Source: Dehalococcoidia bacterium (GTDB lineage: Bacteria; Chloroflexota; Dehalococcoidia; Lucifugimonadales; UBA3495). Taken from it: a stretch of 64,000 bases of DNA. Shown one piece after another: positions 37,401-58,600 of the stretch. Numbering within the stretch: position 1 is the first letter of the stretch; the number at the start of each line of letters is the position of its first letter. The stretch is taken from the NCBI GenBank assembly GCA_965207275.1, contig CBDBMH010000001.1:553244-617243 (forward strand), in the 5' to 3' direction. Under the pieces are notes generated by a model. It saw only the letters and a list, made by a program, of their open reading frames with translations, was not told where the DNA came from and searched no databases. The position numbers and the translations under genes were made by a program.

Positions 37401-40027
37401 AGCGTCACCGTCGCGCCGCTGACCGCAACCTCGTTGGGGGATATGACGCCGACGGGAATCCCCTGATGGTAGGCGCCGTGCACCGCGAAGGACTGGCGCA
37501 ACCCGTACTGCGGCGCCGCGCTGAGCGCCGCCAGGCTCTCGCTGAAGGCCAGCGTCACGATCTTCCCATCGGTGGCGGCCACGGCCGCCGCCGTCACCGT
37601 TGGCGTTCTGGTGACCGAGCCGTTGACGCGGATCTGCAAAGCATTCTCGCTGGGTTGTCTCCAGATGCCTACCTGATGTGTGTGGGTTTTGTTTGCTATC
37701 GACCAGCCGGTCTGTCCGCCGGTATCTTCCCCGTCCGACAGCGTCAAGGACAGCGTCCCTCCCCCCGTCGTCGTGCTCAGGACCACGTAGTACTTCGTGC
37801 TGGCGGACAGCGTGGTGTTCGCCGGCGCAGTGAAGGTGAGGTCGGCGGCGGCCAGCGTAGTCGGATTGGTCAGCGTGGCAACTACTGTCCCCGTAGGCGA
37901 ACCCTGCCGGACCCTCACCCTCAAGTTGGAATCCGGCCCATGCTGGAACTTCACGTCGACGCTAGTCAGGGTCGCTGGGTCCGTCCCCGTCGTGAACTCT
38001 TGGGCGTGGGCAGACGTAAGCACCCCGCCTTGGTAAGGGGTGGCTGACTGACCAATGTTGGAGACGAGCACCGGCTCAGCCACCATAATATCGAAGGTGT
38101 CACTGACCGAGTTCGTGGAGTCGCTGGCGGTCACCTTGACCGACAACGTGGCGGCGTCGGTGGGCTGCGGCGTGCCCGAGAAGGTGCGGGTCGACGGCGT
38201 GAAGGTCAGCCAGGACGGCAGCGCGCTGTCGTCCGCCTGAGTCGCCGTGTAGGTCAACGTGTCGCCGTCGGCGTCAGTGAACGTGTTGGACGGGAAGGCA
38301 TAACTGAATGGCACTCCGACCTTCGCACTTTGATCCGGGATTTCGTTCGCCACCGTTGGCGTTCTGGTGACCGAGCCGTTGACGCGGATCTGCAAAGCAT
38401 TCTCGCTGGGTTGTCTCCAGATGCCTACCTGATGTGTGTGGGTTTTGTTTGCTATCGACCAGCCGGTCTGTCCGCCGGTATCTTCCCCGTCCGACAGCGT
38501 CAAGGACAGCGTCCCTCCCCCCGTCGTCGTGCTCAGGACCACGTAGTACTTCGTGCTGGCGGACAGCGTGGTGTTCGCCGGCGCAGTGAAGGTGAGGTCG
38601 GCGGCGGCCAGCGTAGTCGGATTGGTCAGCGTGGCAACTACTGTCCCCGTAGGCGAACCCTGCCGGACCCTCACCCTCAAGTTGGAATCCGGCCCATGCT
38701 GGAACTTCACGTCGACGCTAGTCAGGGTCGCTGGGTCCGTCCCCGTCGTGAACTCTTGGGCGTGGGCAGACGTAAGCACCCCGCCTTGGTAAGGGGTGGC
38801 TGACTGCCCAATGTTGGAGACGAGCACGTCCGAAACGGACACCGTGATATCGAAGGTGTCGCTGACCGAGTTCTTGGAGTCGTCGGCGGTCACCTTGACC
38901 GACAACGTGCCGGTGTCGGTGGGCTGCGGCGTGCCCGAGAAGGTGCGGGTCGACGGCGTGAAGGTCAGCCAGGACGGCAGCGCGCTGTCGTCCGCCTGGG
39001 TCGCCGTGTAGGTCAGTGTGTCGCCGCTGTCGGCGTCGTTGAAGGTGTTGGCCGGGAACTGGTAGCTGAAGGCCGATCCCGCCGTCGCGCTCTGGTCCGG
39101 GATCGCGTTCGCCACCGTAGGGAAGTTGTTGGTGCATTGGGTGCTGCTGAATGTCGTCTCGTAGGTCAGCTTCGCCTCCACCGTCGCGCCGTGCGGGTCG
39201 GTGGCCGTAAAGGTGACGACCGTGTGGTGCCTCGGGCTCGTTGGGAGCGGGGTGAGCTGGGCCAATCGGCACTGGGTCTTCGCCTTGAAGAACTGCCTGC
39301 CCAGGGTCTTGCTCCATTCTCTGTCGCCCGGGACATGGATGTCGTCGCGGCTCCAGGTTCGCGAGATCGTCAGGGTGTCGCCGTCGGGGTCGCTGACGCT
39401 GATCGGCAATGACACCAGCGTGCCGGACGGCGCGTTGATGGTGGCCCCCGCCCCGCTGAACACGGGGAGGTTGTTGGCGCCGTTCACCTTGTGGTTGGCC
39501 TGGGAAGTCCTCGGCAGGCCCGCGAAGGTGAGTCCGGCGTTGTTGTTGGTGAGGTCCTTCAGCGTGGCGCCGCTCGCCAGGAAAACCACCGCGTTGTTGA
39601 CGTGCCTCAGGGCCACGCCGCTGGGGTCCACGTCCGCCTCCACCACCGTGTAGGTGAAGGTCAGCGACGGCCCCGCGCCGCTCGTCCCCAGGCCGACCAG
39701 GGAGAAATCCCGGTCCGCCGAGCCGACCTGCGCGCGGGTCGTGATCGCCGCGTTGGCCGCACTCTTATCCCAATACACGTCCTGGTTCCAGGTGACCGTC
39801 ATCTGAATCAGGTCGCCGCGCATGTAGGTGTCCGGCGTCCCGTCGCCGTCCGCGTCGTGATTCGGCGTCGAGCTGATGGTGATGGCGGTGATGCTGGGCG
39901 CGGAGCTCTGCGCCTCCGCCGGACCGGGGCCGGTCGTCAGGACCAGGGCGAAGGCGGCAGCGAACAGGGCCAGCAGGCCAAGGAGTAGCCACCGGCGGAA
40001 GAAGGGTGAAAAAGCTGGGAACCTCAC
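32657..40027 (-). CDS. Giant secreted repeat protein (2456 aa) with cadherin-like (dystroglycan-type) and other Ig-like repeats
   Basis: GTG start with GGAGGTGA SD. Signal peptide LLLGLLALFAAAFALVLTTGPGPAEA. CADG-like units PDQSA..G..FSY.FP.NTF.DAD.GDTLTYTATQADDSALPSWLTFTPSTRTFSGTP. Many tandem units. Ends ...HKVDWQQ. Confidence 0.85.
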   Translation of the reverse strand: MRFPAFSPFFRRWLLLGLLALFAAAFALVLTTGPGPAEAQSSAPSITAITISSTPNHDADGDGTPDTYMRGDLIQMTVTWNQDVYWDKSAANAAITTRAQVGSADRDFSLVGLGTSGAGPSLTFTYTVVEADVDPSGVALRHVNNAVVFLASGATLKDLTNNNAGLTFAGLPRTSQANHKVNGANNLPVFSGAGATINAPSGTLVSLPISVSDPDGDTLTISRTWSRDDIHVPGDREWSKTLGRQFFKAKTQCRLAQLTPLPTSPRHHTVVTFTATDPHGATVEAKLTYETTFSSTQCTNNFPTVANAIPDQSATAGSAFSYQFPANTFNDADSGDTLTYTATQADDSALPSWLTFTPSTRTFSGTPQPTDTGTLSVKVTADDSKNSVSDTFDITVSVSDVLVSNIGQSATPYQGGVLTSAHAQEFTTGTDPATLTSVDVKFQHGPDSNLRVRVRQGSPTGTVVATLTNPTTLAAADLTFTAPANTTLSASTKYYVVLSTTTGGGTLSLTLSDGEDTGGQTGWSIANKTHTHQVGIWRQPSENALQIRVNGSVTRTPTVANEIPDQSAKVGVPFSYAFPSNTFTDADGDTLTYTATQADDSALPSWLTFTPSTRTFSGTPQPTDAATLSVKVTASDSTNSVSDTFDIMVAEPVLVSNIGQSATPYQGGVLTSAHAQEFTTGTDPATLTSVDVKFQHGPDSNLRVRVRQGSPTGTVVATLTNPTTLAAADLTFTAPANTTLSASTKYYVVLSTTTGGGTLSLTLSDGEDTGGQTGWSIANKTHTHQVGIWRQPSENALQIRVNGSVTRTPTVTAAAVAATDGKIVTLAFSESLAALSAAPQYGLRQSFAVHGAYHQGIPVGVISPNEVAVSGATVTLTLGSGVPIGKEATVSYIPEGSGDGQRLRYAGGDKLGSFTVTAARPAADPPPVPVAARVEGAKLTLTFDRALDESWAPAGSRFRVQSSAPIPTAGVLVSNIGKSVDPSRGHLLRNTTAAQGFTTGSSTVTLTSVDVKFSIAPGSDLRVRVLQDTHTGTEVATLTNPSTLAAGNLTFTAPAIKVLAANTTYYVVVDSTNTGTLSMTADHGEDTGGEPGWSIENGSYERGHGSWAWLAVNTALIRVNGTGAGTGTSTQVQGMGTATVNGNHVTVPLASAVPVGHTPRVYYDPPGDDANPLRGASSGSPVEYINGIWANVAAASAPALDSAVVAGTKVTLYYNEALDTGSVPATSAFTVTAAGSGVTVSSVAVSETAVTLTLASSVAASSAVTVSYTAPGTNPVRDLAGANAGNLSNEAMTNLGPTDTGAPAVASAKVYTAGVGDGSADQSSVLTLTFDKELDPASVPAASAFTFSHVWFSAESVVVRGKKVELGLPEKLYPCTDSFTVSYAKPASGGLRNLWDTEANDISGQAVTYGGTETCVPGFERPTIGSLILHGTRPFDTDYQPQPEWFTVKASSGPVTVTAAAFDPDDASRLVLSLSRDFVAGETISFSYRRPRGHPGLWNIDGNQIADVIDMPVVNTVGHPPTVNAVSITSDPGDDDTYAMGETVRVRLTFSKAMDVATTGGRPRLKIDMDPADWGEQWAVYESGSATNELVFFHPVVEPNLSTRGIAVLADTLELNGGAIVSASSQTDADLSHDGLDHDPDHKVDWQLPPPQSPPGGANRAPMFVGDAPGSMNAPSATLVSLVASKADFRDPDGDALTFSLSTVRDDVHVPGDLLYSDATQRIFFKANTECALASLDPPLPQTYESVVTMTATDPDGATGSVTATFRTTREDFGCPSLSTATVDGATVTLEFDGDLGWSYDWPAADQFVLKADGAAVSLADARPVTTGDTITLTLAAPVHAGQTVTVSYVPGDSPVAVAFADQPAVNNTPAPAVTAVATVSDPGADDTYAKDDVIRIRVTFDEAVDVDTSGGTPRLKLKMDPNYGEKWASYASGSGATALIFTFTVVEPNYSSQGIAVLANTLELNGGDIESVNTDADANLSHTGLAHDSGHKVDWEQQEQSQNSPATGAPAITGTARVGETLTADTSGISDSDGITGATFSYQWVAAGADISGATGSTYTLASADQGKAVRVRVSFTDDAGHSETLTSAATAAVAAATPPAVTAVAIVSDPGDDDTYAKDDVIQVRVTFDEAVDVDTSGGTPRLKIKMDPNYGDKWASYASGGGSTALIFTFTVVEPNYSSQGIAVLADTLELNGGGIESANTDADANLSHSGLAHDSGHKVDWQQQQQSQNSPATGAPAITGTARVGETLTADTTGISDSDGLTGATFSYQWVAADADISGATGSAYTLASGDQGKTVKVRVSFTDDAGHAETLTSTATAAVAAATPPAVTAVAIVSDPGDDDTYARDDVIRIRVTFDEAVDVDRSGGTPRLKIKMDPSYGEKWAGYASGGGSTALIFTFTVVEPNFSPQGIAVLANTLELNGGDIESASTDTDADLSHTGLAHDSNHKVDWQQ
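37590..39100 (-). repeat. Tandem 756-bp duplication inside the giant gene, about 480 bp per copy near-identical
   Basis: Shadow ORFs 37797..38036 and 38553..38792 translate identically. CACCGTTGGCGTTCTGGTGACCGAGCC occurs at 37595 and 38351, an offset of 756. Confidence 0.85.
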
Positions 40028-43175: not shown

Positions 43176-43291
43176 GGCTGGTAGGCGATTCGGCGGGTTG
43201 GCTGAATTGACTCCGCCAATGAGCAGTGTCTTGACCAAGATGCACTGAGTAAGCTCACATCTCAGCGATTGCTGAAAGAGAGGTGAAAGAA

Positions 43292-44149
43292 ATGAGTACG
43301 CTGCCAACCGTGGGCCCAATTGGGCCGGCAGATACCCAAAGACTATTCGAAGAATTGGCCGAATTGACGTGGGGATGGCTGGCTGACGCTAGGCGCTTGG
43401 GTTTAGGGTTTTCCGAAGATACCATTTCCGACTTAGCCATGCTGGAAATTGGGCGTTCTGGCTCAAACAGCGTCGGAGTTAAGCGGGTTTCGAAGCGCCG
43501 AGAGCGGGTTGTGGGATTCGACTGGCTATGGGTGATTCTCAGGTCCGGCCGGCTACCCACGTTCTATGTTGTTCAAGCGAAGAAACTGCAACTGTACGAA
43601 AGGCCTCCATACTCATACGGAAGACTGAGGTATCCCACCGGAGCAAATTACCAAATCGACGCCCTTGAGGACTTCGCAAATTGGTTAGGTGCGGTTCCGA
43701 TGTACTGCTTCTATAACAATGTTGATGACCTGACTGCCCAATTACATTGGAATTGTCAAATACAGCGGCCCCCGAATCCTCTCCAAATGGGATGCACTCT
43801 CGCCCCTCTGGATGTGGTGCGACCAATCCATGATGGCAGAGGCCCCAAGAACTTCCACGCGATTCATTGGAGGAACCCGGAAGCTCTACCTTGGAGGTGC
43901 CTGTTTCATCCCTCTTGCGCCAGTTTCAGTTTGGGCCCAGCATCAGACAGCCACCCTATCGCAAATAGGAGTGAAGGGATGAACAGGATGCTCGAATTCC
44001 TTCCAGTATTGACCTCGGGAGACGAGGATTGGATCGACGTGGAGGAACTCGTCCGCCAACTTGACCTCGACGAATTGGTCGACAGGTATGAAAGCCGGAG
44101 TTTCACACCAATACCTGACAGGATTTTCTTTGCCAATCTGGAGGACTAG
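43292..44149 (+). CDS. Restriction-endonuclease-fold (Mrr-like D...QxK) protein, island gene 1 (285 aa)
   Basis: GAGAGG SD 8 nt before the ATG. Putative PD-(D/E)XK elements are LAMLEIG (E), VVGFDWLWVI (D) and FYVVQAKKL (QxK), followed by NYQIDALEDF. The fold call is an inference from the motif pattern. Confidence 0.45.
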   Translation: MSTLPTVGPIGPADTQRLFEELAELTWGWLADARRLGLGFSEDTISDLAMLEIGRSGSNSVGVKRVSKRRERVVGFDWLWVILRSGRLPTFYVVQAKKLQLYERPPYSYGRLRYPTGANYQIDALEDFANWLGAVPMYCFYNNVDDLTAQLHWNCQIQRPPNPLQMGCTLAPLDVVRPIHDGRGPKNFHAIHWRNPEALPWRCLFHPSCASFSLGPASDSHPIANRSEGMNRMLEFLPVLTSGDEDWIDVEELVRQLDLDELVDRYESRSFTPIPDRIFFANLED

Positions 44150-44291
44150 CTAGCTTATGCTTATCGACGGCTTTGCCAGTCCTCATCGTTTCGCGGGGTC
44201 AAGGTCCGTTGCGTCAACCAGACGGAATACGAAGGGGTCGAGACTAGGGGCACCATCCGGCAACGTGTCGAACCGTCATTTGGGGCGTGAT

Positions 44292-44314
44292 TGGTGTTGT
44301 ATAATACATCACCA
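44292..44314 (+). promoter_or_regulatory. Palindromic operator overlapping a TATAAT -10 box upstream of the HTH gene
   Basis: TGGTGTTGTAT-A-ATACATCACCA forms 11-bp arms with one mismatch. TATAAT at 44300-44305 lies inside it, about 40 nt upstream of the ATG at 44343. Confidence 0.5.
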
Positions 44315-44342
44315 CTATCGCGTCCGCGTGGACGGAGACAAC

Positions 44343-44543
44343 ATGACGATGCCAGAGGAGTTCACGGTACCCCAAGCGGCGACCTACCTCAAGGTAAGTG
44401 AGGAAACCGTCCGAAGGAACATTCGGGCGAAGCGCCTTTCGGCGCTGCGACGGGGCACCCAATGGTTCATTCCTTCCGAGGTGTTGGTGCTGTTTGCCAA
44501 CTCATACGATCCGAAGACAGGGAAGATAAAGCGGATGCTCTAG
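44343..44543 (+). CDS. Excisionase/MerR-type helix-turn-helix protein, island gene 2 (66 aa)
   Basis: FTVPQAATYLKVSEETVRRNIRAKRLSALRRGTQWFIPSEVL is the classic excisionase-family DNA-binding pattern. Confidence 0.75.
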   Translation: MTMPEEFTVPQAATYLKVSEETVRRNIRAKRLSALRRGTQWFIPSEVLVLFANSYDPKTGKIKRML

Positions 44544-44689: not shown

Positions 44690-46564
44690 GTGAACGAACG
44701 ACCCTCATGGTACTTCCCACCTAGAGGTTGGGGACTGGATGTAATCCAAGACTCGTCCAGCACACACTTTAGGGACGACCCCATTCCAAAACTCGTCAGG
44801 GAGGTTTTGCAAAACTCCCTGGACGCTAATGACAGGGATTTAGTCGGCCCGGTAGAGGTGGAGATCGCCGAGAGCTACGTTGATGGCCGGACCATCGGTG
44901 CCAAAGAGCTGCAGAAGCACCTGGATTCGTGCTTGGAGAGGGCGAAAGAGGAAGACAGAAAAAACGTCCAAGCGTTTTACGGCAGGGCTCTGCAGGCGCT
45001 CGAGGCCGAAGAAATCCGGTGCCTTCAGGTCGTAGACGCCGGTACACTGGGACTCGTCGGCCGCAGCTGGGACGCTCTCGTGTTCCAAGAAGGATCAGTT
45101 CAGAAATCGGGGGCCGCTCCCGGTGGGTCTAACGGTGTGGGGAAAAACGCGGTGCTCAACGTAAGCGATCTTCGCACCGTGTTTTACAGCACCAGATATA
45201 TTCAACGGCGTGAAGGCAGGGTGGAAAAGCTCCAGGGCAAGGCCACCTTGATGGACCATCGCAACCCCCAGGACAAGAGCGAGAGCCTACAGCACGTTGG
45301 CTTCTATTCGATGCCTCAAGGGGAGCCGGTTTTGACTACGCAGATTCCCGGCTTTTTCCGGCTCGACGACGTGGGGACCGGTGTATTCATCATGGGATTC
45401 AACCCCAGGTCGAATGATTGGACCAGGGAAGTAACCGCTGCGGTCATCGAGAATTTCTTTCACGCCATACATCACAAGAAGCTCGTCGTCAGAGTAAAGA
45501 ACCGCATTGATGACCCCATTCTGATTAACCACGAAACCCTTGACTGGCTCTTCGAGCGTGAAAGCAGCAATAAACCGGCATTTCATTACTACAAAGCTAT
45601 CAGAGACGTGGAACCGGGGGAGACAGACCCTATCGGAAAAATTGGGCCGCTCAACGCATACGTTTTCATCGGTTCCGGTCCTCGCAGGACCGCATATATA
45701 AACCGCAATGGGATGCTAATCACCGACAGCCGTGAGCAGAAAATCAATCCAATTGCTCCGCGTGGCAAGAGCCTGTGGCCGGATTACTGTGTCGTGGTGA
45801 CGCCAGAATCCGACAGGGGAGACGAATGGATAAGGCAAACGGAGAACACAAGCCATGACTCCATGTCGCCCCGACAATGTTTCGAGGGTAGGGAGCTGAC
45901 CGAGGCGGAGCGCTGGTTCAGGCAGGCCAGAAACACAATAAGCAAGATCATTGACGATGCCGCCCAGGTGCAGAAGTACGGCGATACCACCAATCTGAGT
46001 GAGTTGGCGTCCATGTTCCCGGACGAGTTTGACCCCGAAAGCCCAGGGAACAAACTGCTGAAGACGAAGACCACCAACACTAGACTCGTAATACCCCCGT
46101 CCGTTACACCGGACCCGGAGTCTGGTCCAGATCCCGAACCGGGGCCGGGTCCGGGGCCTGACCCTGATCCTCGTCCCAATCCTGGCCCGGGACCTAGGCC
46201 AGACCCGGGACCAAATCCGAGGCCAGGGCCGGTGCCAGGCCCGGGGCCGGGCCAAAGAAGAAGCCGGCGGCCACGTATTGAACGTCCGCGCTTGATTCCC
46301 ACGGACCGGACTTCGGCTACAGTGGCGTTCACCCCAATGAGTGAAACGCCGCAGGAAATAGCCATCCGATTGAGACCGGCCGGAGGCGAGTGGGGCCAAG
46401 AAAATCCAATCGAGGTCGTGAGTGCTAAGGTCGTAAGCCCGGCGGGCCAAGAAGCCAAAATTCAAGACGGGTCGGTTCAATTGACTCCGCAATCCAACGA
46501 GCGAGTGGTGATCGAGATAGAGACCAGCGATGCGCTTGACGACTTTGCATTCAGGATAGGGTAA
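44690..46564 (+). CDS. GHKL/Bergerat-fold ATPase (Hsp90/sacsin/MORC-like), island gene 3 (624 aa)
   Basis: N-box REVLQNSLDA, DxGxG VVDAGTLGL, G-loop GGSNGVGKNA. Pro/Gly/Asp-rich linker (DNA 46108-46255), then a ~100-aa C-terminal domain. GTG start with GGGAG SD. Confidence 0.75.
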   Translation: MNERPSWYFPPRGWGLDVIQDSSSTHFRDDPIPKLVREVLQNSLDANDRDLVGPVEVEIAESYVDGRTIGAKELQKHLDSCLERAKEEDRKNVQAFYGRALQALEAEEIRCLQVVDAGTLGLVGRSWDALVFQEGSVQKSGAAPGGSNGVGKNAVLNVSDLRTVFYSTRYIQRREGRVEKLQGKATLMDHRNPQDKSESLQHVGFYSMPQGEPVLTTQIPGFFRLDDVGTGVFIMGFNPRSNDWTREVTAAVIENFFHAIHHKKLVVRVKNRIDDPILINHETLDWLFERESSNKPAFHYYKAIRDVEPGETDPIGKIGPLNAYVFIGSGPRRTAYINRNGMLITDSREQKINPIAPRGKSLWPDYCVVVTPESDRGDEWIRQTENTSHDSMSPRQCFEGRELTEAERWFRQARNTISKIIDDAAQVQKYGDTTNLSELASMFPDEFDPESPGNKLLKTKTTNTRLVIPPSVTPDPESGPDPEPGPGPGPDPDPRPNPGPGPRPDPGPNPRPGPVPGPGPGQRRSRRPRIERPRLIPTDRTSATVAFTPMSETPQEIAIRLRPAGGEWGQENPIEVVSAKVVSPAGQEAKIQDGSVQLTPQSNERVVIEIETSDALDDFAFRIG

Positions 46565-46569
46565 CGGCA

Positions 46570-47421
46570 ATGACCACCTGGAACGACAGATTGCTCCCTC
46601 ACCCTTTGTTGGCGCCTTGGACGGACGACTACCCGGAGGCGGCCTTTACGGCGCAAGTTCCGCACGCCGTGATTAACAATGGCAAGCAAATCAACTTGAC
46701 CATCAAGTATCACCTGACCAGCCAGTCGCTTCGGGACTTGATCTCAGAAGGCAAAGCCCACTACGTAAGCCTGGTGGCGTGCGCAAAGACCTTTAGCCGC
46801 AATTCCTATCCCTGCGAACACGAGGACGACCTCTGTATCCTGGACGCCCAGGACTTCTCTGAGGAACTCAAGCTCACTCCCTATGTGGTAGCCAAGCAGC
46901 CCATAGACGGATTCACGTCCTCCGAACTCGTGGACGAAATCACCCGTTTCAAGCCAGATGGGTTCCACATTCCAACAGGGTCGATACTGGCCGTCGGAAA
47001 TTCTACTGAGGTGGAGTTGGAAGAAGGGGGTAGTCCCTTTGCGGTTATCGACCTGGTTGCTGACGCCAAAGTCGAAAGCGGCACATTCAAGGTCGATCTT
47101 GATGATAACCGAATAAAAGTCTACATGGCTCCGGGGGACAAAGACCAGATCGAGGCGCTGCGTCAACACGGAGAACAAAGCTGGGAAATGGCAGTGTTGT
47201 TCCCTTCCATCTATCTCCATGCGATTTCCGAGGCGTTGCGGAACCTGGCCTACTATCCCGAAAACCGCTGGGCGCGAACCATGCAGAGGGCGCTTGAACG
47301 CCACAGCATAGTAGTTGACGAAGACGAACTGAAAGATAATGCACTTACCCACGCGCAGACCCTCATGGAGCGGCCTGTGGGGACGTTGATGAAAGCCCTC
47401 AGCCGCGAGGAGGAGGGTTAA
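46570..47421 (+). CDS. Hypothetical protein, middle gene of the GHKL/PP-loop operon (283 aa)
   Basis: 6-nt gap from the upstream gene and a TAATG overlap with the downstream gene. No motif recognised. Confidence 0.6.
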   Translation: MTTWNDRLLPHPLLAPWTDDYPEAAFTAQVPHAVINNGKQINLTIKYHLTSQSLRDLISEGKAHYVSLVACAKTFSRNSYPCEHEDDLCILDAQDFSEELKLTPYVVAKQPIDGFTSSELVDEITRFKPDGFHIPTGSILAVGNSTEVELEEGGSPFAVIDLVADAKVESGTFKVDLDDNRIKVYMAPGDKDQIEALRQHGEQSWEMAVLFPSIYLHAISEALRNLAYYPENRWARTMQRALERHSIVVDEDELKDNALTHAQTLMERPVGTLMKALSREEEG

Positions 47422-49043
47422 TGGAGATGGCTGCGCAGGAATTCCAGATTTTAAGGCTGACGCAAGAGGCATACGACCAACTCTGGTTGTTCGCTAGGGA
47501 GAATCCAAAAGCCTATCTCGACCCTGACACAGACTTCAATCGGGTCCTGCTTGACCGCGGCGTTACCGACTATGCGGAGGATACAGGGATTGTTGCTGAC
47601 AGCCCCATAAGTCTCACGCCAGTGGAGAGGGTCCCAGCGAATCGGGCAGACCGGCAGGCCTTGGACTTCCACCGTTCGATGCCAGATTTGACTCCCAGCG
47701 CCGCTACCGACAGCCTGATGTGGACCTGGATGACCCATTTCAGGTTGCACTCGTACAGTATCAAGCGCTGGCGCTTGCAGGGGGACCTGACCAATCACAT
47801 CAGGAACCACTGGTTCGTGGGAAACGAGTCGGACGCCCTACGTCAAAACAACACCGCGTCGCGTACCTGGTGGATTGCCAACACGGCGATCAAGGCAGCA
47901 AAGGCTTCGGGAGGCGCCTTCACCGAAGAGGAGGCGATAAATCATTTCGCCAATAACCCCCGCCACTACCACAACATGATGGACTCGAACTTCAGCAGAC
48001 ATCCGGTCGTATGCGCCGAAATGTTGCTGGCGCTCATGACTGAGGCTAGAGGAATCTCTGGGGTGGGTTCCGACCAAATCTGGAAACGGATGAATTTAGC
48101 CGCCGGAACCCTGCTACTGGACGCGATGCCCAGGGAGCAGCTAAGGGAGCGCATCAACCACCACATCGACGAAATAATGTCGGTCTCTGACTTCGTGACA
48201 GACCGTACCAAGCTGCGGAATCGTGTTCCTTGTCGTGTACTCAGCCTGGGGGCAGGGGTTCAATCATCCTGTCTGGCCCTGCTTGCTGAACGAGGGGAAT
48301 ATGGCCTTCCCAAGCCCGACTTTGCCATCTTCGCCGATACAGGCTGGGAACCTCAGGCCGTTTACGACCACCTAGATTGGCTCAAATCGCAGCTCTCATT
48401 TGAAGTCATTCGTGTCAACAATGGGAACATTCGGGAAAACATACTACAAGGCCGGATGCCCGACGGGTCGAGGTTTCTAGGAATTCCCGCGTTCCTGCGC
48501 AATACTGACGGAAGCACCGGTATCCTGCACCGACAATGCACGACCCACTATAAGACAAAGCCAATCCACGATTACCTCAGAGACAGGCTAGGACTAAAGC
48601 CCGGCAGGAGGGCCCCTTCCGACGTCCAAGTGGAAATGTGGCTTGGAATAAGCACCGACGAAGCGATACGACAGAAGCCCGACCAGGAGGAATGGGTCAC
48701 AAAGCGGTACCCGCTCATCGACTTGGGGTTTAGCCGAGGTCAGTTGTTGAATTGGTTCAGAGAAAATTACCCTGGCCACCATTTACCTAGCAGTTCCTGT
48801 GTCGGATGTCCGTACCACAGTGACTCGGTCTGGAAGCAGTTGAAGGAAAGCGACCCCAAATCCTTCCAGGATGCTGTCTTCATCGACCAGGCGCTACGCA
48901 ATGTCCCTATTGTAAAAGACACGGTCATAGGAGAGGCATATCTCCATCGATCAAGGACCCCGCTGTTGGAAGTGGATCTTGAGGAGATACCCAGTTATGA
49001 AGACTTAATGCTGGATGAATGCGAAGGGCTTTGCGGGATTTAG
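47421..49043 (+). CDS. PAPS-reductase-like PP-loop enzyme with a ~270-aa N-terminal helical extension, island gene 5 (540 aa)
   Basis: PP-loop variant RVLSLGAGVQSSCLALL, then FADTGWEPQAVYDH. C-terminal Cys pair SSCVGCPYHS. I do not recognise the N-terminal half. Confidence 0.75.
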   Translation: MEMAAQEFQILRLTQEAYDQLWLFARENPKAYLDPDTDFNRVLLDRGVTDYAEDTGIVADSPISLTPVERVPANRADRQALDFHRSMPDLTPSAATDSLMWTWMTHFRLHSYSIKRWRLQGDLTNHIRNHWFVGNESDALRQNNTASRTWWIANTAIKAAKASGGAFTEEEAINHFANNPRHYHNMMDSNFSRHPVVCAEMLLALMTEARGISGVGSDQIWKRMNLAAGTLLLDAMPREQLRERINHHIDEIMSVSDFVTDRTKLRNRVPCRVLSLGAGVQSSCLALLAERGEYGLPKPDFAIFADTGWEPQAVYDHLDWLKSQLSFEVIRVNNGNIRENILQGRMPDGSRFLGIPAFLRNTDGSTGILHRQCTTHYKTKPIHDYLRDRLGLKPGRRAPSDVQVEMWLGISTDEAIRQKPDQEEWVTKRYPLIDLGFSRGQLLNWFRENYPGHHLPSSSCVGCPYHSDSVWKQLKESDPKSFQDAVFIDQALRNVPIVKDTVIGEAYLHRSRTPLLEVDLEEIPSYEDLMLDECEGLCGI

Positions 49044-49084: not shown

Positions 49085-49591
49085 ATGAGCACCGACCGAG
49101 AATTCTTCGACGACATCATTTCCATTCTGCAAAAGCATAGGTTGAGGTTCGTTCATTCTCCCCAGATGTGGCAGCAGTGCAATCTGCCGGTCACCCTGGA
49201 ATGGAATTCAGTGGAATTTTCGGAGAATAACGGTGACAGCGTTCCTTCGGATAAGTTTGGAGTCTACGCCTTTATGTTGGAGCCAAATTTCGCCGGTCCG
49301 CCTAAATCCGCATATCTGCTTTATATAGGAAAAACAGGCCGGCATTTTCAGGTGAGATACAAGGAGTACCTCTACGAAGAAGATCAAGGATTTGCCCGTC
49401 CCCCGATTTCCAGAATGCTGGAAAGGTGGAGCGGACACATTTCATTTCACTATGCTCCGATTGAGGATCCGGGTTTGCTTCGTCGAACGGAAGAGGCTCT
49501 CTTAAATGCCTGTATCCCTCCATACAATCGACAGTTCACGGGAAGAGTCGGAAGGGCAATTATGGCCTTTCGGCAGGATAGCGGAGGTTAA
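49085..49591 (+). CDS. Stand-alone GIY-YIG nuclease-like protein, island gene 6 (168 aa)
   Basis: GIY element FGVYAF. YIG element YLLYIGKTGRHFQVRYKEY with the conserved Arg. Distal EEALLNACIPPYN (Glu/Asn). Confidence 0.65.
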   Translation: MSTDREFFDDIISILQKHRLRFVHSPQMWQQCNLPVTLEWNSVEFSENNGDSVPSDKFGVYAFMLEPNFAGPPKSAYLLYIGKTGRHFQVRYKEYLYEEDQGFARPPISRMLERWSGHISFHYAPIEDPGLLRRTEEALLNACIPPYNRQFTGRVGRAIMAFRQDSGG

Positions 49592-51147: not shown

Positions 51148-54100
51148 ATGGCGGGAACAGAAACCTTGAAAGATTTGTCGCGTGTTCAATCCTCCGTTGA
51201 TCGACTGGTCAATGCGTCAGAGGACCAACTGCCATCGGCCTTTGAGGAATTATCCCGGTCGATTCTTGAACACTATGGCGTAACTTACGACTCGACGGCC
51301 ACCAGTAAATTGTTCTCTCGTGATTTGCCTTTACCGGTTCAGAGCTTTGCGGCTACTTGGCTGGTTCGCTGCCTGACCAGGTCTTCCTCGGCACTCAGAT
51401 TTGGACATACTGAGCGACTAGCAGCCGACCTGTTCGACCAAATCTTCCAACACAATGTTTACCAGCGCGCCAACATTGACCATCGACAGCAGACTTTTGA
51501 GAAGTTACGAGCTTTAGAAGGGCATTTGCATTCGATATTGATTGATGCCGAAGGGCTGGTGTCAGTCTCTCCAAATCTAGGTCAGCTTAACTCCTTCCTT
51601 CAAAGACTATTGGCCTTCTTAAATCATCGTGGGAATCAACCTTTTCTAACCCACCTTTTGCCCGCTCCGTTGCTTCATCAGTCCCGAATCGCCAATTTGT
51701 TTCAAGTTGTAGCCGACTACGCTGACAATCTAGACGGTGATCCCATTCATAAGCGCGATGCTGCAGTGGAAGCTTGTGAGGAATTCGAAAGGGAGGCGCA
51801 GGAATTCGGCACTATAGATGCCGAGCGCATTCTAGGTGCCCTAGCCCGGCAGCTCAAGTCGGCTGTAGAGAGCCATTTCGAATCTTCGGAATCGGGCAAG
51901 AGCCCGACCCTTGCGTTCGGCCCCATTAGCAAGAAATATCCTTTGGAAAGGGTTAGTGAGACTGTTTCCTTCAGAATCAAAGTGGACAATCACGGCACCG
52001 GTCCGGCAAGGGACTTGAGGCTTGATGGAGTCGCAGTCGACGAGTGTCTTCTTATTCAGGCTTCCTCCATTGGTCTTGGAACCCTACAGCCCGGGGATTC
52101 CTTGGTCTTCGACATCGTGGCAAGTGTGGTTGCACCTTCCTCAGGGGCAACAATGGTGGCAGAATTTTCCTGGAGTTCGCCCGGGGGGAGGGTAGGGGAA
52201 ACCCACACTTTCGAAGTTCCTGCGCAACGAGGGGATGTTAATTGGGTTTCAGTAGAGCTCACTGAGCCTTATTCGCTGGAGCCAGTAGCCACAGAGGACG
52301 ATCTTATTGGCCGGAAGGCAGAGCTGACCCGCTTGCTTCGACTGGCCAACAGCCGGACAGTCGGGTCTGGGTTCATCTTTGGTCAAAAGAGAGTAGGCAA
52401 GACATCACTGGCTAACGCTGTTGAAGAGAGCCTTGAATCGAGTTCTGACATCAAATGGGTCGTGATAAACAAGGGTAGCGGGGATTACGTAGGAGACGAT
52501 GCTCATAGCAGTCTGCGAACGATGGGAGAAGTCCTGGCAGAAGCTATCATAGACCGAGTACCACATCTGAATGACACACCTATCCCGGACTTTACCAGTG
52601 GGCTCTCTCCTCTGTCTCGTTTGGTAGATCAAGCTCTCGTCCAAGGAGACCTGCGAATTCTATTCATTTTGGATGAATTCGATGAGTTGCCACCCGAGCT
52701 GTTCAGACGGACTGATCTGGCGACGGCTCTGTTTCAGCCACTGCGCCAGATAAGCAACAAACGAGGTTGTGGGTTCCTCTTGGTAGGGGGAGAAAGTATG
52801 CAGCAAATTGTCAATTCTCAAGGGGATCGCCTCAACAAATTCACTCCCATTGAACTAGACTACTTCACCAGATCAAACAACTGGAATGATTTCGTCGAGC
52901 TCATTAGGAGGCCAGTACAGGATTGGTTGACCATAAGCGATGGCGCTCTTGAGGAACTTTTCACTTCCAGTGCAGGGAATCCGTATTTCGCCAAGCTGTT
53001 GGCACGCCAACTGTTTGCAGATATGGTCGACAATCGCTATAGCGATGCGAGTGAAGTGGATATGGGTACTGCGATAGACCATACACTGTCCACAATTGGA
53101 GCCAACTCTTTCGCTCACTTCTGGACTGACGGTTTAGCCCAATCCCCTAACAACGCGGAAGAGATACGCATAACCAGGCGATCAGTCTTGATTGCAGCTG
53201 GCCGGGCCTTTCGGAAAAACCCTTTTGTCAACTATGAAGGCATTTGGGAGGAATTCAAGCACGCAGCCGGGTTGCCGGTAGAGGAACAGCGTTTTCGGAT
53301 TACATTGCAAGACTTCCTTCGTCGGAAGATATTTGTGGAGGATGAAGCTGGCGGCGTTAGTCCCAAGATTCCGCTATTTCGGTCTTGGCTGATGGACAAA
53401 GGGGTTAGAGACCTATTGGAGGATTCTCAAGAGCTAGATTACTTGAGGTCCAGGCTGCAAGAAGAAGAGGAAGTGCGGGTAACGGACGGTGAAATCTTGT
53501 GTCTCTCCGAGCGTCTGGAGAATTTCCGCTATCGCGGCCGCGCTATTGAGACGACGGCGATTAGGAGATGGCTCGGGCAATTCGACGGCCCCAGGGAACA
53601 GCGGTTGATGTTCCGGTTGGCATCGGCCGTGAGGTGTTACGACGAAGATGCCGTTCGGACCAAAATGCGCGAGGCCTTCGGTATCGTAATGCGGAATATG
53701 CGTACCGTAATCGAGCCAAGGGCAAGGGTACGCAATGACATCCTAGTTAGCCCTCTGGATGATTCACCGGCTAAGTCGGGATCGACCTATTGCCGACTGT
53801 TCGTCAGTGAGAACAGATTATCGACTAATTCAGTTCATACTCTGGAATCGCTGGAGCGAAGGTTTCCAACTAATAATGAGGTTCAACGCCTTGTGCTCAT
53901 TGATGATTTCTCTGGTACAGGGGCGACTTTGGCTGGCGGACTGAAACGGCATTCAGACCTTCTTCGCCGCCTGAACTCGGAGGGCGTCCGTATAATTGTC
54001 ATAGCCTTGGTAGGATTTTCGGAAGCCCGCGAACACATCGAGCACTTTGTCGAGCAGGCAGGAATCGAGGCTGATGTCTATTTCTGCGACGAGTTGGGCC

Positions 54101-54330
54101 CAGAACATAGAGCTTTCTCAGAGTCCTCCTCTATCTTTCCAGAGGTCGCTGAACGGGACCTTGCCAGACAAATTGCAGAGTCCAGGGGTGTGGCACTAGA
54201 GCGGAGGTTCCCCCTCGGGTACCAAGACACACAAGGGTTGATCGTCTTTCACCAAAGTTGTCCAAATAACACGTTGCCAATCTTTTGGTCTCGGAATGGG
54301 GATTGGAATCCATTGTTTCCGCGCATCTAA
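51148..54330 (+). CDS. Multidomain P-loop (STAND/ORC-like) NTPase with a beta-sandwich module and a C-terminal phosphoribosyltransferase domain, island gene 8 (1060 aa)
   Basis: Walker A GQKRVGKTSLANA and Walker B RILFILDEFDEL, preceded by LIGRKAELTRL. CARDB-like stretch KVDNHGTGPARDLRL...LGTLQPGDSLVFDI. PRPP-binding loop RLVLIDDFSGTGATLAGG. GAGGAGG SD. Confidence 0.75.
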   Translation: MAGTETLKDLSRVQSSVDRLVNASEDQLPSAFEELSRSILEHYGVTYDSTATSKLFSRDLPLPVQSFAATWLVRCLTRSSSALRFGHTERLAADLFDQIFQHNVYQRANIDHRQQTFEKLRALEGHLHSILIDAEGLVSVSPNLGQLNSFLQRLLAFLNHRGNQPFLTHLLPAPLLHQSRIANLFQVVADYADNLDGDPIHKRDAAVEACEEFEREAQEFGTIDAERILGALARQLKSAVESHFESSESGKSPTLAFGPISKKYPLERVSETVSFRIKVDNHGTGPARDLRLDGVAVDECLLIQASSIGLGTLQPGDSLVFDIVASVVAPSSGATMVAEFSWSSPGGRVGETHTFEVPAQRGDVNWVSVELTEPYSLEPVATEDDLIGRKAELTRLLRLANSRTVGSGFIFGQKRVGKTSLANAVEESLESSSDIKWVVINKGSGDYVGDDAHSSLRTMGEVLAEAIIDRVPHLNDTPIPDFTSGLSPLSRLVDQALVQGDLRILFILDEFDELPPELFRRTDLATALFQPLRQISNKRGCGFLLVGGESMQQIVNSQGDRLNKFTPIELDYFTRSNNWNDFVELIRRPVQDWLTISDGALEELFTSSAGNPYFAKLLARQLFADMVDNRYSDASEVDMGTAIDHTLSTIGANSFAHFWTDGLAQSPNNAEEIRITRRSVLIAAGRAFRKNPFVNYEGIWEEFKHAAGLPVEEQRFRITLQDFLRRKIFVEDEAGGVSPKIPLFRSWLMDKGVRDLLEDSQELDYLRSRLQEEEEVRVTDGEILCLSERLENFRYRGRAIETTAIRRWLGQFDGPREQRLMFRLASAVRCYDEDAVRTKMREAFGIVMRNMRTVIEPRARVRNDILVSPLDDSPAKSGSTYCRLFVSENRLSTNSVHTLESLERRFPTNNEVQRLVLIDDFSGTGATLAGGLKRHSDLLRRLNSEGVRIIVIALVGFSEAREHIEHFVEQAGIEADVYFCDELGPEHRAFSESSSIFPEVAERDLARQIAESRGVALERRFPLGYQDTQGLIVFHQSCPNNTLPIFWSRNGDWNPLFPRI

Positions 54331-55622: not shown

Positions 55623-55657
55623 CTTGCCTCGTGCTGGCTGTCCGGCCAGGCCCCGGG

Positions 55658-58600
55658 CTAGTCGTCGTCCACGATGGTCATGGTTCCCACCGCGTCGGGC
55701 GGGTGGTAGTTCCCGGGCAGGAACGCCTCCACCGCGAAGTACTCGTCCGGCTCGTCGTCCTCGTCCTGCTCCAGCCACACCTCCGCCGTCAGCACCGTCA
55801 CTCCCGGCTTGAACACCAGTTCTCCCTCCGCCGGCTGGTAGTCGGACCGGTGCGCCCGGTCGTCCAGCAGGTGGTAGGCCGGCGCGGTGTACCACCGCAC
55901 CCGGATCTCCTCGGTGGGCGCCGCCGACAGCGCCACCCGGAACTCCAGCACGTCGCCCTCCACCGCCGAGGCGTCCGCCACGGTCACGCTGATCTCCACC
56001 TCCGGGGCCGCGTCGTCGTTGTCGGCCACGGCCACCGTGGCCGCGCCCTGGGTCGAGGACACCGTGTAGTCGCTGCCCGCGTTCACCGTCGCCGTCACCG
56101 ACCCGTCGGTCTCGTCCGCGCTATCGTCCGTGGTGCCAACGGTCAGGGTGACGCTGCCCGTGGTGGGGACGGTCACCGTGCGCTGTCCCGTGGCCGCGCC
56201 GTAGTCGCCGGTCTGGGTGACCGTGACCTTCACGTCCAAGTTGGACGCCGGCGCCGGGCTGGCGCTGACGGTGAAGCTCGCGCTCCCGCCCTCGGTGATC
56301 CCGCCGCCCCCGCTGACGCTCACCACCGGGGTGGGGGCGTCGTCGTCGTCGGACACGGCCACCGTGGCCGCGCCCTGGGACGAGGACACCGTGTAGCCGC
56401 TGCCGGCGTTCACCGTGGCCGTGACCGAGCCGTCGGCCTCGTCGGCGTCGTCGTCGGTGGTGCCCACGGTGAGGGTGACGCTGCCCGAAGTGGGGACGGT
56501 CACCGTGCGCTTGCCGGTGGTGGCGCCGTAGTCGCCGCTCTGGGACACCGTGACGCTGACGTCCAGGTTGGACGCCGGGGCCGGGCTGGCGGTCACCGTG
56601 AAGACGGCGTCGCCGCCCTCGGTGATCCCGCTGCCGCCGCTGCCGCTCACCACCGGCGTGGGGGCGTCGTCGTTGTCGGCCACGCCGACCGTGGCCGCGC
56701 CCTGGGACGAGGACACCGTGTAGCCGCCGCCGGCGTTCACCGTGGCCGTCACCGACCCGTCGGCCTCGTCGGCGCTGTCGTCGGTGGTGCCGACGGTGAT
56801 GGTGACGCTGCCCGAAGTGGGGATCGTCACCGTGCGCTTCCCCGTGGCCGCCCCGTAGTCGCCGCTCTGGGACACCGTCGCGCTCACGTCCAGGTTGGAC
56901 GCCGGGGCCGGGCTGGCCGTCACCGTGAAGACGGCGTCCCCGCCCTCGGTCACCCCGCTGCCCGCGCTGACGCTCACCACCGGCGTGGGGGCGGCGTCGT
57001 CGTCGGACACGGCCACCGTGGCCGCGCCCTGGGTCGAGGACACGGTGTAGCCGCTGCCCGCGTTCACCGTGGCCGTCACCGACCCGTCGGTCTCGTCGGC
57101 GCTGTCGTCCGTGGTGCCGACGGTGAGGGTGACGCTGCCCGTGGTGGGGATGGTCACCGTCCGCTGGCCCGTGGCCGCGCCGTAGTCGCCGCTCTGGGAG
57201 ACCGTGACGCTGACGTCCAGGTTGGCCGAAGGCGCCGGGCTGGCGGTCACCGTGAAGACGGCGTCGCCGCCCTCGGTCACCCCGCTGCCGCCGCTGACGC
57301 TCACCTCAGGCGTGGGCGGCGGCGGAGGCGTCTGTGCCGCCTCCGCTTCCAGGGCGGTCAGCTCGACGACCACCAGGTCCCACACCGGGCTGCTGTGATT
57401 GTCGGCCATGTCCTGCGCCTCGGCCGCCGTCATCGGGCCGCCGGTGACGCCGGTGCCGTCGTGCTTGCCGAAGGCCAGCAGCACCCGGTTCCAGCGGTTA
57501 ACGTGGGCCGTCCCGTGCTGCGTCTGCGACGCCAGCTCCCTGACCTTCGCGATCACGTCCGGGTCCACCGTGTAGCCCGTCTGCTCCTCGACGACCGGGT
57601 CGTCGTTGTCTGCGACGCCGACCGTCTCCGACGACGGCGCCCCCACCGTGTAGCCGCTGCCCGCGTTGACGGTCAGCGTGACCGAGCCGTCGGCCTCGTC
57701 CACCTCGTCGTCCGTGGTGGCGATGGTCACCGTGGCGCTGCCCGACGTTGGGATGGTGACGCTGGCGGGCAGCGTCCCGTACCCGAAGTCCCCGGTCGTG
57801 GCGACCGTGACGCTCACCGCCAGGTCCGCCGCCGGGGCCGGGCTGGCCGTCACCGTGAAGACGGCGTCCCCGCCCTCGGTCACCCCGCTGCCCGCGGTGA
57901 CGCTCACCTCCGGCGTGGGGGCGGCGTCGTCGTCCAGCAGCGGCAACGTGACGCGGGAAGGGTCGCCCAGCGTGTAGCCCTCGCCGACCACAATTTGCGC
58001 CACCAGCGTGCCGTCGGACAGCGCGTCGTCGTCGGAGTAGGCGATGATGGTCTGCGATGCGGACGACTCGAAGGCCTTGATGACCAGCGTGAGGAACTGT
58101 TCACGCGCGACGCGGTCCGCACCCTCGCCCATCTCCTCGATAACGCTCACGATGACCGGCGTGTCGACCGGCGGGACCGGGCTGGCGCTGACCGTGAAGG
58201 TCACGTCGCCGCCCTCGGCCGCCGACAGCGCGTTGCTGGAGAGCGTCATCGTGGAGCCGTCGTTGAGCGTCCCCAGCGCCGAGAACGCGCGGCGGATCTC
58301 CGGCGGCGCAGTGGACGGCGGCGTGAACTGGTTGCAGTCCACCTTGACGCTGAACTTGTTCGACGGCCAGCCGGACGGCGACTGCAACTGCACGCAGAAC
58401 GTCACGGCCTCCCCCGGCACCTCGTCGTTGCGCAGGGTCACCGGCGTGATCGTGATCCGGTAGACCGGGTCGCCGGGGTTCGAGCGGTCGCGGTACGTGG
58501 TCTTCAGGCCGGTGTTGACGATGCCCGCCCTGTACGGCTCCTGGTTGACCACGCCGTCGTGCCCGATGACCCGGTCAACACGCCGCGAGTAGATGTACGT

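Follow-up and report, generated by a model that had tools for sequence, protein, structure and literature searches.

The 64,000-nucleotide stretch of a Dehalococcoidia bacterium genome analysed here (contig CBDBMH010000001.1, positions 553,244 to 617,243; hereafter the window) carries what we can call, with high confidence, a composite defence operon built from two separable modules. The first module is the core of PDC-M33, a candidate defence system of the PADLOC library; in it, a GHKL-like ATPase (g1) is joined by g2, a protein of beta-sandwiches and helices, and by a DUF6339 protein. The second is a PP-loop enzyme resembling PAPS reductase, whose type is frequent on mobile elements and which is fused to the C-terminus of the DUF6339 protein within the third gene (g3). 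Two more genes, coding for a GIY-YIG nuclease-like protein (orf168) and a DGQHR-domain protein, complete the unit. Our preferred reading, to which we give slightly less than an even chance, is a restriction-modification-like defence in which the PAPS-reductase-type enzyme replaces the methyltransferase and marks self DNA, most likely with phosphorothioate (PT), by analogy with characterised systems. Taken separately, we have moderate confidence that the operon modifies DNA, and lower confidence that the mark, argued by analogy, would be PT. The open reading frame (ORF) list and direct reading of the junctions give five genes, all on the + strand:

44690-46564, +, g1, 624 amino acids (aa), GTG start
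46570-47421, +, g2, 283 aa, ATG start
47421-49043, +, g3, 540 aa
47421-48215, +, N-terminal half of g3, DUF6339, the PDC-M33C part
48216-49043, +, C-terminal half of g3, predicted PAPS-reductase-fold PP-loop domain
49085-49591, +, orf168, GIY-YIG nuclease-like protein, 168 aa
49598-50917, +, DGQHR-domain (DndB/ParB-like) protein, 439 aa

An earlier model reading of the letters alone (the sequence-only reading) had described three coupled ORFs at 44690-49043, and their lengths and the TAATG stop/start overlap of g2 and g3 at 47419-47423 (a 1-nucleotide overlap, with GAGGAGGAGG just 5' of it) are as it gave them. Its 6-nucleotide gap between g1 and g2 is a coordinate difference: the TAA of g1 ends at 46564 and the ATG of g2 begins at 46570, so that 5 nucleotides intervene. 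The unit has five genes rather than the three proposed, with gaps of 41 nucleotides between g3 and orf168 and of 6 nucleotides between orf168 and the DGQHR gene; a gap of 230 nucleotides then precedes the next gene, which encodes a 1060-aa protein. The two genes that had been missed are, judging by the phylogeny described below, partners co-inherited with the PP-loop gene. The operon lies in a low-GC island (~43.3-54.6 kb) with a GC content of 0.47-0.59, compared with 0.65-0.74 in the flanks. No tRNA or obvious att site was found in the 64-kb window, and scans for promoters and terminators gave background level only. The five-gene operon was acquired horizontally, and the low-GC island, together with the spread of the gene family across domains, excludes a housekeeping role.

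The two-part construction of g3 is seen both in profile searches and in its AlphaFold2 model, which has a predicted local distance difference test (pLDDT) score of 75 overall and ~85-95 in both domain cores. The N-terminal half, mostly alpha-helical in the model, matches Pfam DUF6339 (2.4e-22, aa 82-246) and PADLOC PDC-M33C (6.5e-22), and this DUF6339 part had no PDB counterpart among the top Foldseek matches. The added domain of ~275 aa has, according to the model, a PP-loop/PAPS-reductase fold and is SspD-like, in agreement with the assignment made from motifs by the sequence-only reading: Foldseek ranks CysH first (6vpu and 1sur, E 3.8e-4, prob 1.0), with TtuA, LarE and GMP synthetase behind it, and PADLOC SspD matches at 6.2e-11. 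It contains SLGAGVQSS, FADTGWEP, RQCT..YK, GIS.DE, C460xxC463 and a C-terminal EC534EGLC538GI, and all residues invariant in the PP-loop family are present, as are all the motifs reported earlier for g1 and g3. While g3 itself does not match Pfam PAPS_reduct at E<=0.01, the family member P0090 scores 25.7 bits against a gathering score of 22.5, and a Geobacillus phage homologue 22.2 bits against the same cut-off (22.5). Searches of the PDB with g3, as a single sequence and as a profile, returned nothing usable. One protein in which a SAM-methyltransferase is fused to g3 (P0089) was not used as evidence, as it forms a single-member cluster and its DUF6339 is truncated.

The PAPS-reductase fold would also be expected of a CysH in a housekeeping sulfate-assimilation operon, and this explanation has a vanishingly small probability because the context refutes it. 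The genome is high in GC whereas the genes sit in a low-GC island with defence genes as flanks, the enzyme is fused to DUF6339, and the family is shared by bacteria and Nitrosopumilaceae archaea at 45-50% identity. Moreover, the window contains no cys genes, and g3 matches neither the CysH equivalog nor any other NCBIfam model. The defence context and the island thus agree with the sequence-only reading in placing the locus outside housekeeping sulfate assimilation.

By profile, g1, g2 and the DUF6339 half of g3 correspond to PDC-M33 A, B and C. The match of g1 to PDC-M33A (1.4e-65) covers aa 5-454. The protein has an N-terminal GHKL-like region (aa ~30-250) and a middle region; a Pro/Gly/Asp linker (aa ~468-521, a low-complexity Pfam match) and a ~100-aa C-terminal domain follow. 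The Bergerat motifs are found in order, namely E38/N42/D45 (I), D116/T119/G121 (II) and G146/G149/G151/K152 (III), and the corresponding RE..QN..DA, D..T.GL and GGS.G.GK are kept in 82-86 of 86 relatives, including those of 25-30% identity. With a diverse profile of these 86 sequences, hhalign aligned 206 columns of g1 to a genuine HATPase_c_3 family and kept motifs I-III in register (E 8.1e-5, probability 61%), whereas an earlier run with a shallow profile had aligned the N-box only (probability 3.5%). The alignment of g1 to the N-domain of a double-GHKL family (c7) was not significant (probability 4%), a Sacsin (Hsp90-like) domain was matched weakly by 5 of 27 g1 relatives (best E 0.042), and PDB searches with the single sequence and with the profile gave nothing usable. 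The earlier claim of a GHKL-type ATPase is thus backed by the motifs and the HATPase_c_3 alignment and finds no Pfam HATPase match; we regard g1 as likely to be such an ATPase, supported rather than proven.

The second gene product, g2, matches PDC-M33B (7.5e-36) and has no match in Pfam, NCBIfam or the PDB. Its AlphaFold2 model (pLDDT 79) consists of two beta-sandwich domains and a C-terminal helical bundle, for which Foldseek returned generic Ig/FnIII-like matches only (E ~5e-3), and no catalytic motif was recognised in it. A D...ExK string had suggested a PD-(D/E)xK nuclease; this was rejected, given the beta-sandwiches and helices of the model and the lack of a nuclease match.

PDC systems are a set of 145 phage defence candidates, as yet untested, whose prediction relied on guilt-by-embedding, since they are embedded in BREX, DISARM or Type I restriction-modification loci (bioRxiv 10.1101/2024.01.29.577857). 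Literature searches for PDC-M33, for DUF6339 and for 'PAPS reductase + GHKL' found nothing relevant, and a reappraisal paper on Dnd does not cover the PP-loop family. The architecture had been called undescribed in the sequence-only reading; the trio, however, is already catalogued as PDC-M33, and what remains of that claim is that the fusion, and the family of lone enzymes introduced below, are without description in the literature searched. The profiles that match the trio, A, B and C, are those of an untested candidate. Judged by profile and synteny, the locus belongs to PDC-M33, with which it shares the matches to all three profiles, the gene order, the strand and the GHKL-like motifs of the A family, but its C is not a single-domain protein: in PDC-M33, C is a DUF6339 protein of ~235-350 aa (profiles 247-346), whereas g3 has 540 aa and includes the PP-loop domain. 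In addition, the locus has neither the ~76-aa ORF nor the adjacent DNA methyltransferase of canonical PDC-M33, and is followed instead by the GIY-YIG and DGQHR pair.

The first module is indeed found without the second. A tblastn search with g1 against plasmids returned 26 records, and we examined seven hosts with a full annotated A-B-C trio (Planococcus, Arthrobacter, Priestia, Ligilactobacillus, Deinococcus, Halobaculum and Halorussus), in all of which the trio lacks a PP-loop domain and has the gene order of the window, with A of ~620-655 aa, B of ~235-345 aa and, as C, a DUF6339 protein of ~230-275 aa. A helical ORF of ~76 aa precedes A in four of the seven (Planococcus, Arthrobacter, Priestia and Deinococcus). 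Neither the window nor any of the 79 best loci that make up our synteny set (L001-L079), 60 of which carry the fusion, has this ORF; a small helix-turn-helix (HTH) ORF 5' of g1 was compared with it as a possible counterpart and is different. A DNA methyltransferase lies within ~5 kb of the trio in every one of the seven hosts: dcm (with vsr) is found upstream in Planococcus, Deinococcus and Arthrobacter, a divergent dcm beside the trio in Halorussus, and dcm downstream in Priestia and Halobaculum, while the trio of L. salivarius has HsdS/HsdM upstream and an MmeI-like methylase downstream. This adjacency is suggestive of a partnership between PDC-M33 and a methyltransferase.

The second module, too, is found without the first. 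An exhaustive search yielded 4,377 clusters of the PP-loop family at 50% identity (1,241 at E<=1e-30), and most members are stand-alone proteins of 260-300 aa. Among 41 sampled relatives, PADLOC SspD was the best defence-library match for all (best 3e-23), the BrxP profile was touched by only one (8e-4), and no NCBIfam model matched any. Fused, stand-alone and phage members have the PP motif, FADTGWEP, RQCT..YK, GIS.DE, CxxC and EC.G.CG in common, with SLGAGVQSS and FADTGWEP invariant throughout, and from the conservation of five cysteines (373, 460, 463, 534 and 538 in g3) we infer an Fe-S or persulfide site. The sole solved structure matched by the broad family profile in the PDB is 21fy chain C, 'PptA' (270 aa, E 0.0015), of which literature searches found no description; it is like the family in size, and its GIS-DE, R-DC and CxxC motifs align, but the match is distant and confined to the C-terminal ~100 residues. 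In loci L060-L079, a stand-alone protein of ~289 aa, ~50% identical to the C-terminal half of g3 (SspD 1.2e-14), is encoded directly after ordinary metabolic genes with no adjoining g1, g2 or DUF6339. One of these stand-alone loci (L064, 11172-14750) has a g1-like protein (689 aa, 27% identity) 3' of its DGQHR gene, and a GHKL-like component can thus occupy another position.

The nearest relatives of the g3 PP-loop domain are lone genes of phages and plasmids (36-47% identity, E to 1e-72), which are far closer than the SspD profile. In phages we found 50 records of such lone genes (31-44% identity, E to 8e-62), lying inside replication and recombination modules. In Geobacillus phage PK5.1 the homologue sits between an HNH gene and SSB, in Thermus phage P23-77, with a genome of 17 kb, it follows the replication protein, in Mycobacterium prophages it lies near a DNA methylase, and Pelagibacter phage HTVC034P also has a lone copy. 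Plasmids contributed 175 records (43-47% identity), 108 of them from Agrobacterium, where the homologues are annotated merely as 'hypothetical protein'. On the Agrobacterium pAt plasmid CP048491.1 (L092 4015-5807) the 288-aa homologue, 47% identical, overlaps the stop codon of ArdC, a genuine anti-restriction gene (ArdcN + MPTase-PolyVal). Elsewhere, the homologue follows a 631-aa ParB-family protein on Roseobacter pTB1 and adjoins an adenine methylase on a Laceyella plasmid. The P4-like primase region of the Mesorhizobium plasmid NZ_AP023261.1 (L093 4491-5810) encodes a protein of 439 aa that carries the annotation DNA cytosine methyltransferase. In it, a complete PP-loop domain follows the N-terminal third of a C5-methylase (positions 4-115 of 324 in Pfam), which may reflect either a true fusion or a rearrangement.

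This phage and plasmid niche is consistent, if indirectly, with lone PP-loop genes being orphan, self-sufficient enzymes of protective DNA modification, that is, with a DNA substrate and with no need for a dedicated partner. A bolder possibility follows the same line, and we consider it rather unlikely: the whole PP-loop family would be a self-sufficient DNA-modifying enzyme that places phosphorothioate or another ATP-activated mark without a P-loop NTPase or specificity partner, serving phages and conjugative plasmids as anti-restriction armour and providing defence islands with a 'self' mark to which nuclease modules could be coupled interchangeably. In that case PDC-M33 would be a modification-agnostic restriction core that works with a cytosine methylase or with the fused enzyme. 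Conversely, the PP-loop domain may act not on DNA but on nucleotides, tRNA or sulfur metabolites, through ATP or nucleotide depletion, tRNA thiolation or phage auxiliary sulfur assimilation. None of its structural neighbours (CysH, TtuA, LarE and GMP synthetase) acts on DNA, the EC.G.CG motif of the family recalls the catalytic cysteine in the 'ECGLH' of CysH, and no P-loop NTPase partner is present. Still, we judge a substrate other than DNA improbable: there is no sulfate-assimilation context, the neighbours are consistently nucleases, helicases, ParB-like proteins, DNA methylases, ArdC and replication genes, and SspD is the best defence-library match in 41/41 relatives.

The fusion itself is well established as a family. 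The ~540-aa protein has 855 matches, among them more than 120 clusters with 58-91% identity over the full length, and 557 relatives in species-representative genomes. In the fusion loci, g1 is present in 58/60 and g2 in 56/60, with gene order and strand constant throughout, so that the linkage proposed by the sequence-only reading recurs in other genomes and, by these counts, is far beyond chance. The hosts are Dehalococcoidia, Caldilineaceae, Acidimicrobiia, Gemmatimonadota, Arenicellales, Latescibacterota and archaea (Nitrosopumilaceae/Cenarchaeum), and archaeal and bacterial copies share 45-50% identity. It looks as if the family was exchanged across domains within one habitat, which, going by the names of the records, may be marine sponge microbiomes. 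Two g1-g2(-g3) copies lie within 10 kb of each other in L007, L011 and L022, in opposite orientation in the first two, and several metagenome-assembled genomes (e.g. OZ242308.1 and OZ219748.1) have two or three separate loci.

Such strict synteny raises the question of whether g1, g2 and DUF6339 are dedicated synthesis partners of the PP-loop enzyme, as had been supposed of the GHKL ATPase and g2 in the sequence-only reading. The GHKL protein would then stand for DndD/SspC, and g2 or DUF6339 for DndE/SspB, making the trio a new machine for phosphorothioation or another DNA modification, with the downstream genes as its restriction arm. The physical fusion of DUF6339 to the PP-loop domain, the presence of the trio in 56-58 of 60 loci and the grouping of the fused PP-loops in essentially one clade all accord with this. 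So does the precedent: in every characterised PT system the PAPS-reductase protein is accompanied by a P-loop NTPase (DndD, SspC or BrxC) as well as a DNA-binding, DNA-targeting partner, and both are needed; BrxP likewise is a PAPS reductase fused to a DNA-binding domain (PMC12914056, PMC12839542). On the other hand, the trio occurs without the PP-loop in seven distant hosts, and the PP-loop without the trio in the stand-alone loci and in 50 phage and 175 plasmid records, including a 17-kb phage. As each is found alone, neither part requires the other, contrary to the claim of dedicated partnership, and we consider this arrangement unlikely.

What the PP-loop gene does keep close to itself is the set of genes that follows it. 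The orf168 protein aligns with the c8 family, which matches Pfam GIY-YIG at 7.2e-6, and its invariant residues G59, Y61, Y80, G82, R91 and E136 reproduce the catalytic pattern of G-x-Y, Y-x-G, Arg and Glu. The 439-aa protein matches TIGR03187 DGQHR (2e-28), Pfam DndB (7.1e-26) and, weakly, GmrSD_N (3e-3), and its family profile has no significant match in the PDB. A DGQHR gene lies directly 3' of the PP-loop gene in 23 of the 79 loci, stand-alone ones included. Stand-alone PP-loop genes are followed either by the GIY-YIG and DGQHR genes or by a helicase, an HATPase_c_3 GHKL protein and a PLD nuclease. From their size, the three families of the latter module (c6-c4-c5) had been guessed to be SspA, SspC and SspB, which they are not. 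Both modules also follow fused g3 genes, and other fused loci carry GmrSD/SspE-like, PbeA/PbeC-like or double-GHKL proteins downstream; the GmrSD/SspE-like and PbeA/PbeC-like families are linked to phosphorothioate systems. In a neighbour-joining tree of the PP-loop domain, the stand-alone proteins form two clades that match the downstream module exactly, and the fused proteins essentially one clade, whose subclades track it. The PP-loop gene is thus co-inherited with the module that follows it.

This pattern bears on the possibility that PDC-M33 with a passenger PP-loop fusion, the GIY-YIG and DGQHR pair, and the 1060-aa AAA ATPase and PRTase protein encoded further downstream are independent systems stacked in one island, with the PP-loop enzyme serving one of them or none. 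Defence systems do cluster, PDC candidates are defined by their embedding in other systems (bioRxiv 10.1101/2024.01.29.577857), the gene 3' of g3 varies widely among loci, and the AAA-PRTase gene is present in 0/79. Even so, gaps of 41 and 6 nucleotides join g3, orf168 and the DGQHR gene, stand-alone and fused PP-loop genes alike are followed by the two types of module described above, in step with PP-loop phylogeny, and a protein fusion is hard to square with full independence of DUF6339 and the PP-loop domain. We therefore hold such mere stacking to be of low probability.

We know of only four established phosphorothioation architectures (dnd, ssp, tdp and BREX type 4), all with a P-loop NTPase. 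As the sequence-only reading stated, the canonical PT partners are absent: profile searches of the window detected no cysteine desulfurase, DndC, DndD/SspC, DndE, SspB or BrxA/B/C/L, and nothing of the BREX type 4 set (BrxP, BrxC, PglZ and BrxL). Among the recurrent neighbours of the 79 related loci, too, there is no cysteine desulfurase, SspB (DUF4007) or SspC. Compared with SspD and BrxP, g3 is likewise a PAPS-reductase-fold PP-loop enzyme in a defence context and, like BrxP, is fused to another domain and placed where sister systems have a methyltransferase; its fusion partner, however, is DUF6339 rather than the DUF4007 of BrxP, and SspA, SspB, SspC, BrxC, PglZ and BrxL, the partners in Ssp and BREX type 4, are missing. 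The minimal Ssp set is sspBCD (PMC12914056). The 439-aa protein resembles DndB in having a DGQHR domain and in adjoining a PAPS-reductase-family gene, but it is not an orthologue, scoring 42.7 bits against the DndB equivalog (cut-off 328), and no dndCDE accompanies it. In SspE and GmrSD, a ParB-like NTPase and an HNH/DUF1524 nuclease form a single chain, whereas here the ParB/DGQHR-like protein and a GIY-YIG nuclease are split over two genes; sister loci have single-chain GmrSD/SspE-like proteins at the very position of this pair. The locus is SspD-like by profile and yet, because the partners are absent, falls outside Ssp, Dnd and BREX type 4; nor is it assimilatory CysH.

In the restriction-modification-like scheme that we favour, the PP-loop domain would, at the expense of ATP, activate self DNA and place a covalent mark on it by way of its cysteine/Fe-S site, and the mark would be a backbone phosphorothioate by analogy with SspD, DndC and BrxP. 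The enzyme would thereby stand in for the DNA methyltransferase of canonical PDC-M33, and its sulfur would come from a housekeeping cysteine desulfurase. In BREX type 4, a PAPS reductase is indeed swapped for the methyltransferase and housekeeping SufS/IscS desulfurases supply the sulfur (PMC12914056, PMC12839542). The presence or absence of this mark would then guide the action on DNA of the PDC-M33 core, of the GIY-YIG and DGQHR pair, or of both, the pair presumably as a split analogue of SspE/GmrSD-type sensors.

Several points weigh against this scheme. The sole ATPases at the locus are GHKL-like and ParB-like, and in one tested isolate a PAPS-reductase gene without the P-loop NTPase and DNA-binding partners gave no PT (PMC12914056). 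Since characterised PT systems need a P-loop NTPase, the mark may not be PT, or the GHKL-like and ParB-like proteins may supply the NTPase function. At 6e-11, the SspD match of g3 is a modest one, and the PP-loop family lacks an NCBIfam model. As neither g1 nor g2 nor DUF6339 has a recognisable nuclease domain, their 'restriction' role is conjecture. Finally, several of the methylases near canonical PDC-M33 have an endonuclease of their own, and the adjacency could reflect ordinary clustering in defence islands.

Beyond the five genes, the island and its surroundings contain the following features:

43283-44149, +, DUF6615 protein, 288 aa, at the left edge of the low-GC island
44157-44543, +, small HTH_17/excisionase-family DNA-binding ORF (Pfam and TIGR profiles)
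51148-54330, +, AAA ATPase + PRTase-CE protein, 1060 aa

The HTH ORF matches Pfam HTH_17 (1.1e-9) and TIGR01764 (1.9e-8) over aa 69-115. Its true start is likely M63 at ~44343, giving ~66 aa. It possibly regulates the operon, and it is kept 5' of g1 only in the nearest loci, L001 and L002 (83-84% identity). The DUF6615 protein, encoded just 5' of the HTH ORF, was not found in the related loci. In the 1060-aa protein, AAA_22/ATPase_2 (aa ~386-612) precedes a C-terminal PRTase-CE domain (4.2e-46), and PADLOC PRTase_III-A matches at 6e-36; as its gene is absent from all 79 related loci, it is a separate system, a single-gene defence candidate within the island. In the high-GC host region adjoining the island, a 2456-aa secreted protein (32657-40027, -) with many near-identical repeats of ~100 and ~250 aa and a signal-peptide-like N-terminus resembles the adhesins and 'eukaryotic-like' repeat proteins of symbionts. 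On the other side, at 55631-61396, very long ORFs of 1272 aa (+) and 1912 aa (-) overlap on opposite strands at a GC content of 0.67-0.74; at most one of them is likely to be real, and the pair illustrates how unreliable raw ORF lists are for this genome.

Several hundred related loci in species-representative genomes thus couple an SspD-like enzyme to quite different partners. Their spread over Chloroflexota, Acidimicrobiia, Gemmatimonadota, Proteobacteria and Nitrosopumilaceae amounts to a cross-domain exchange of a defence module, seemingly within one habitat. If the PP-loop enzyme modifies DNA, a minimal modification enzyme would be revealed, the common phage 'PAPS reductase' gene would be explained, and PDC-M33 and DUF6339 would gain their first functional handle. 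If, moreover, the enzyme should prove self-sufficient, these loci would represent a fifth, architecturally distinct family of backbone-modification defence.

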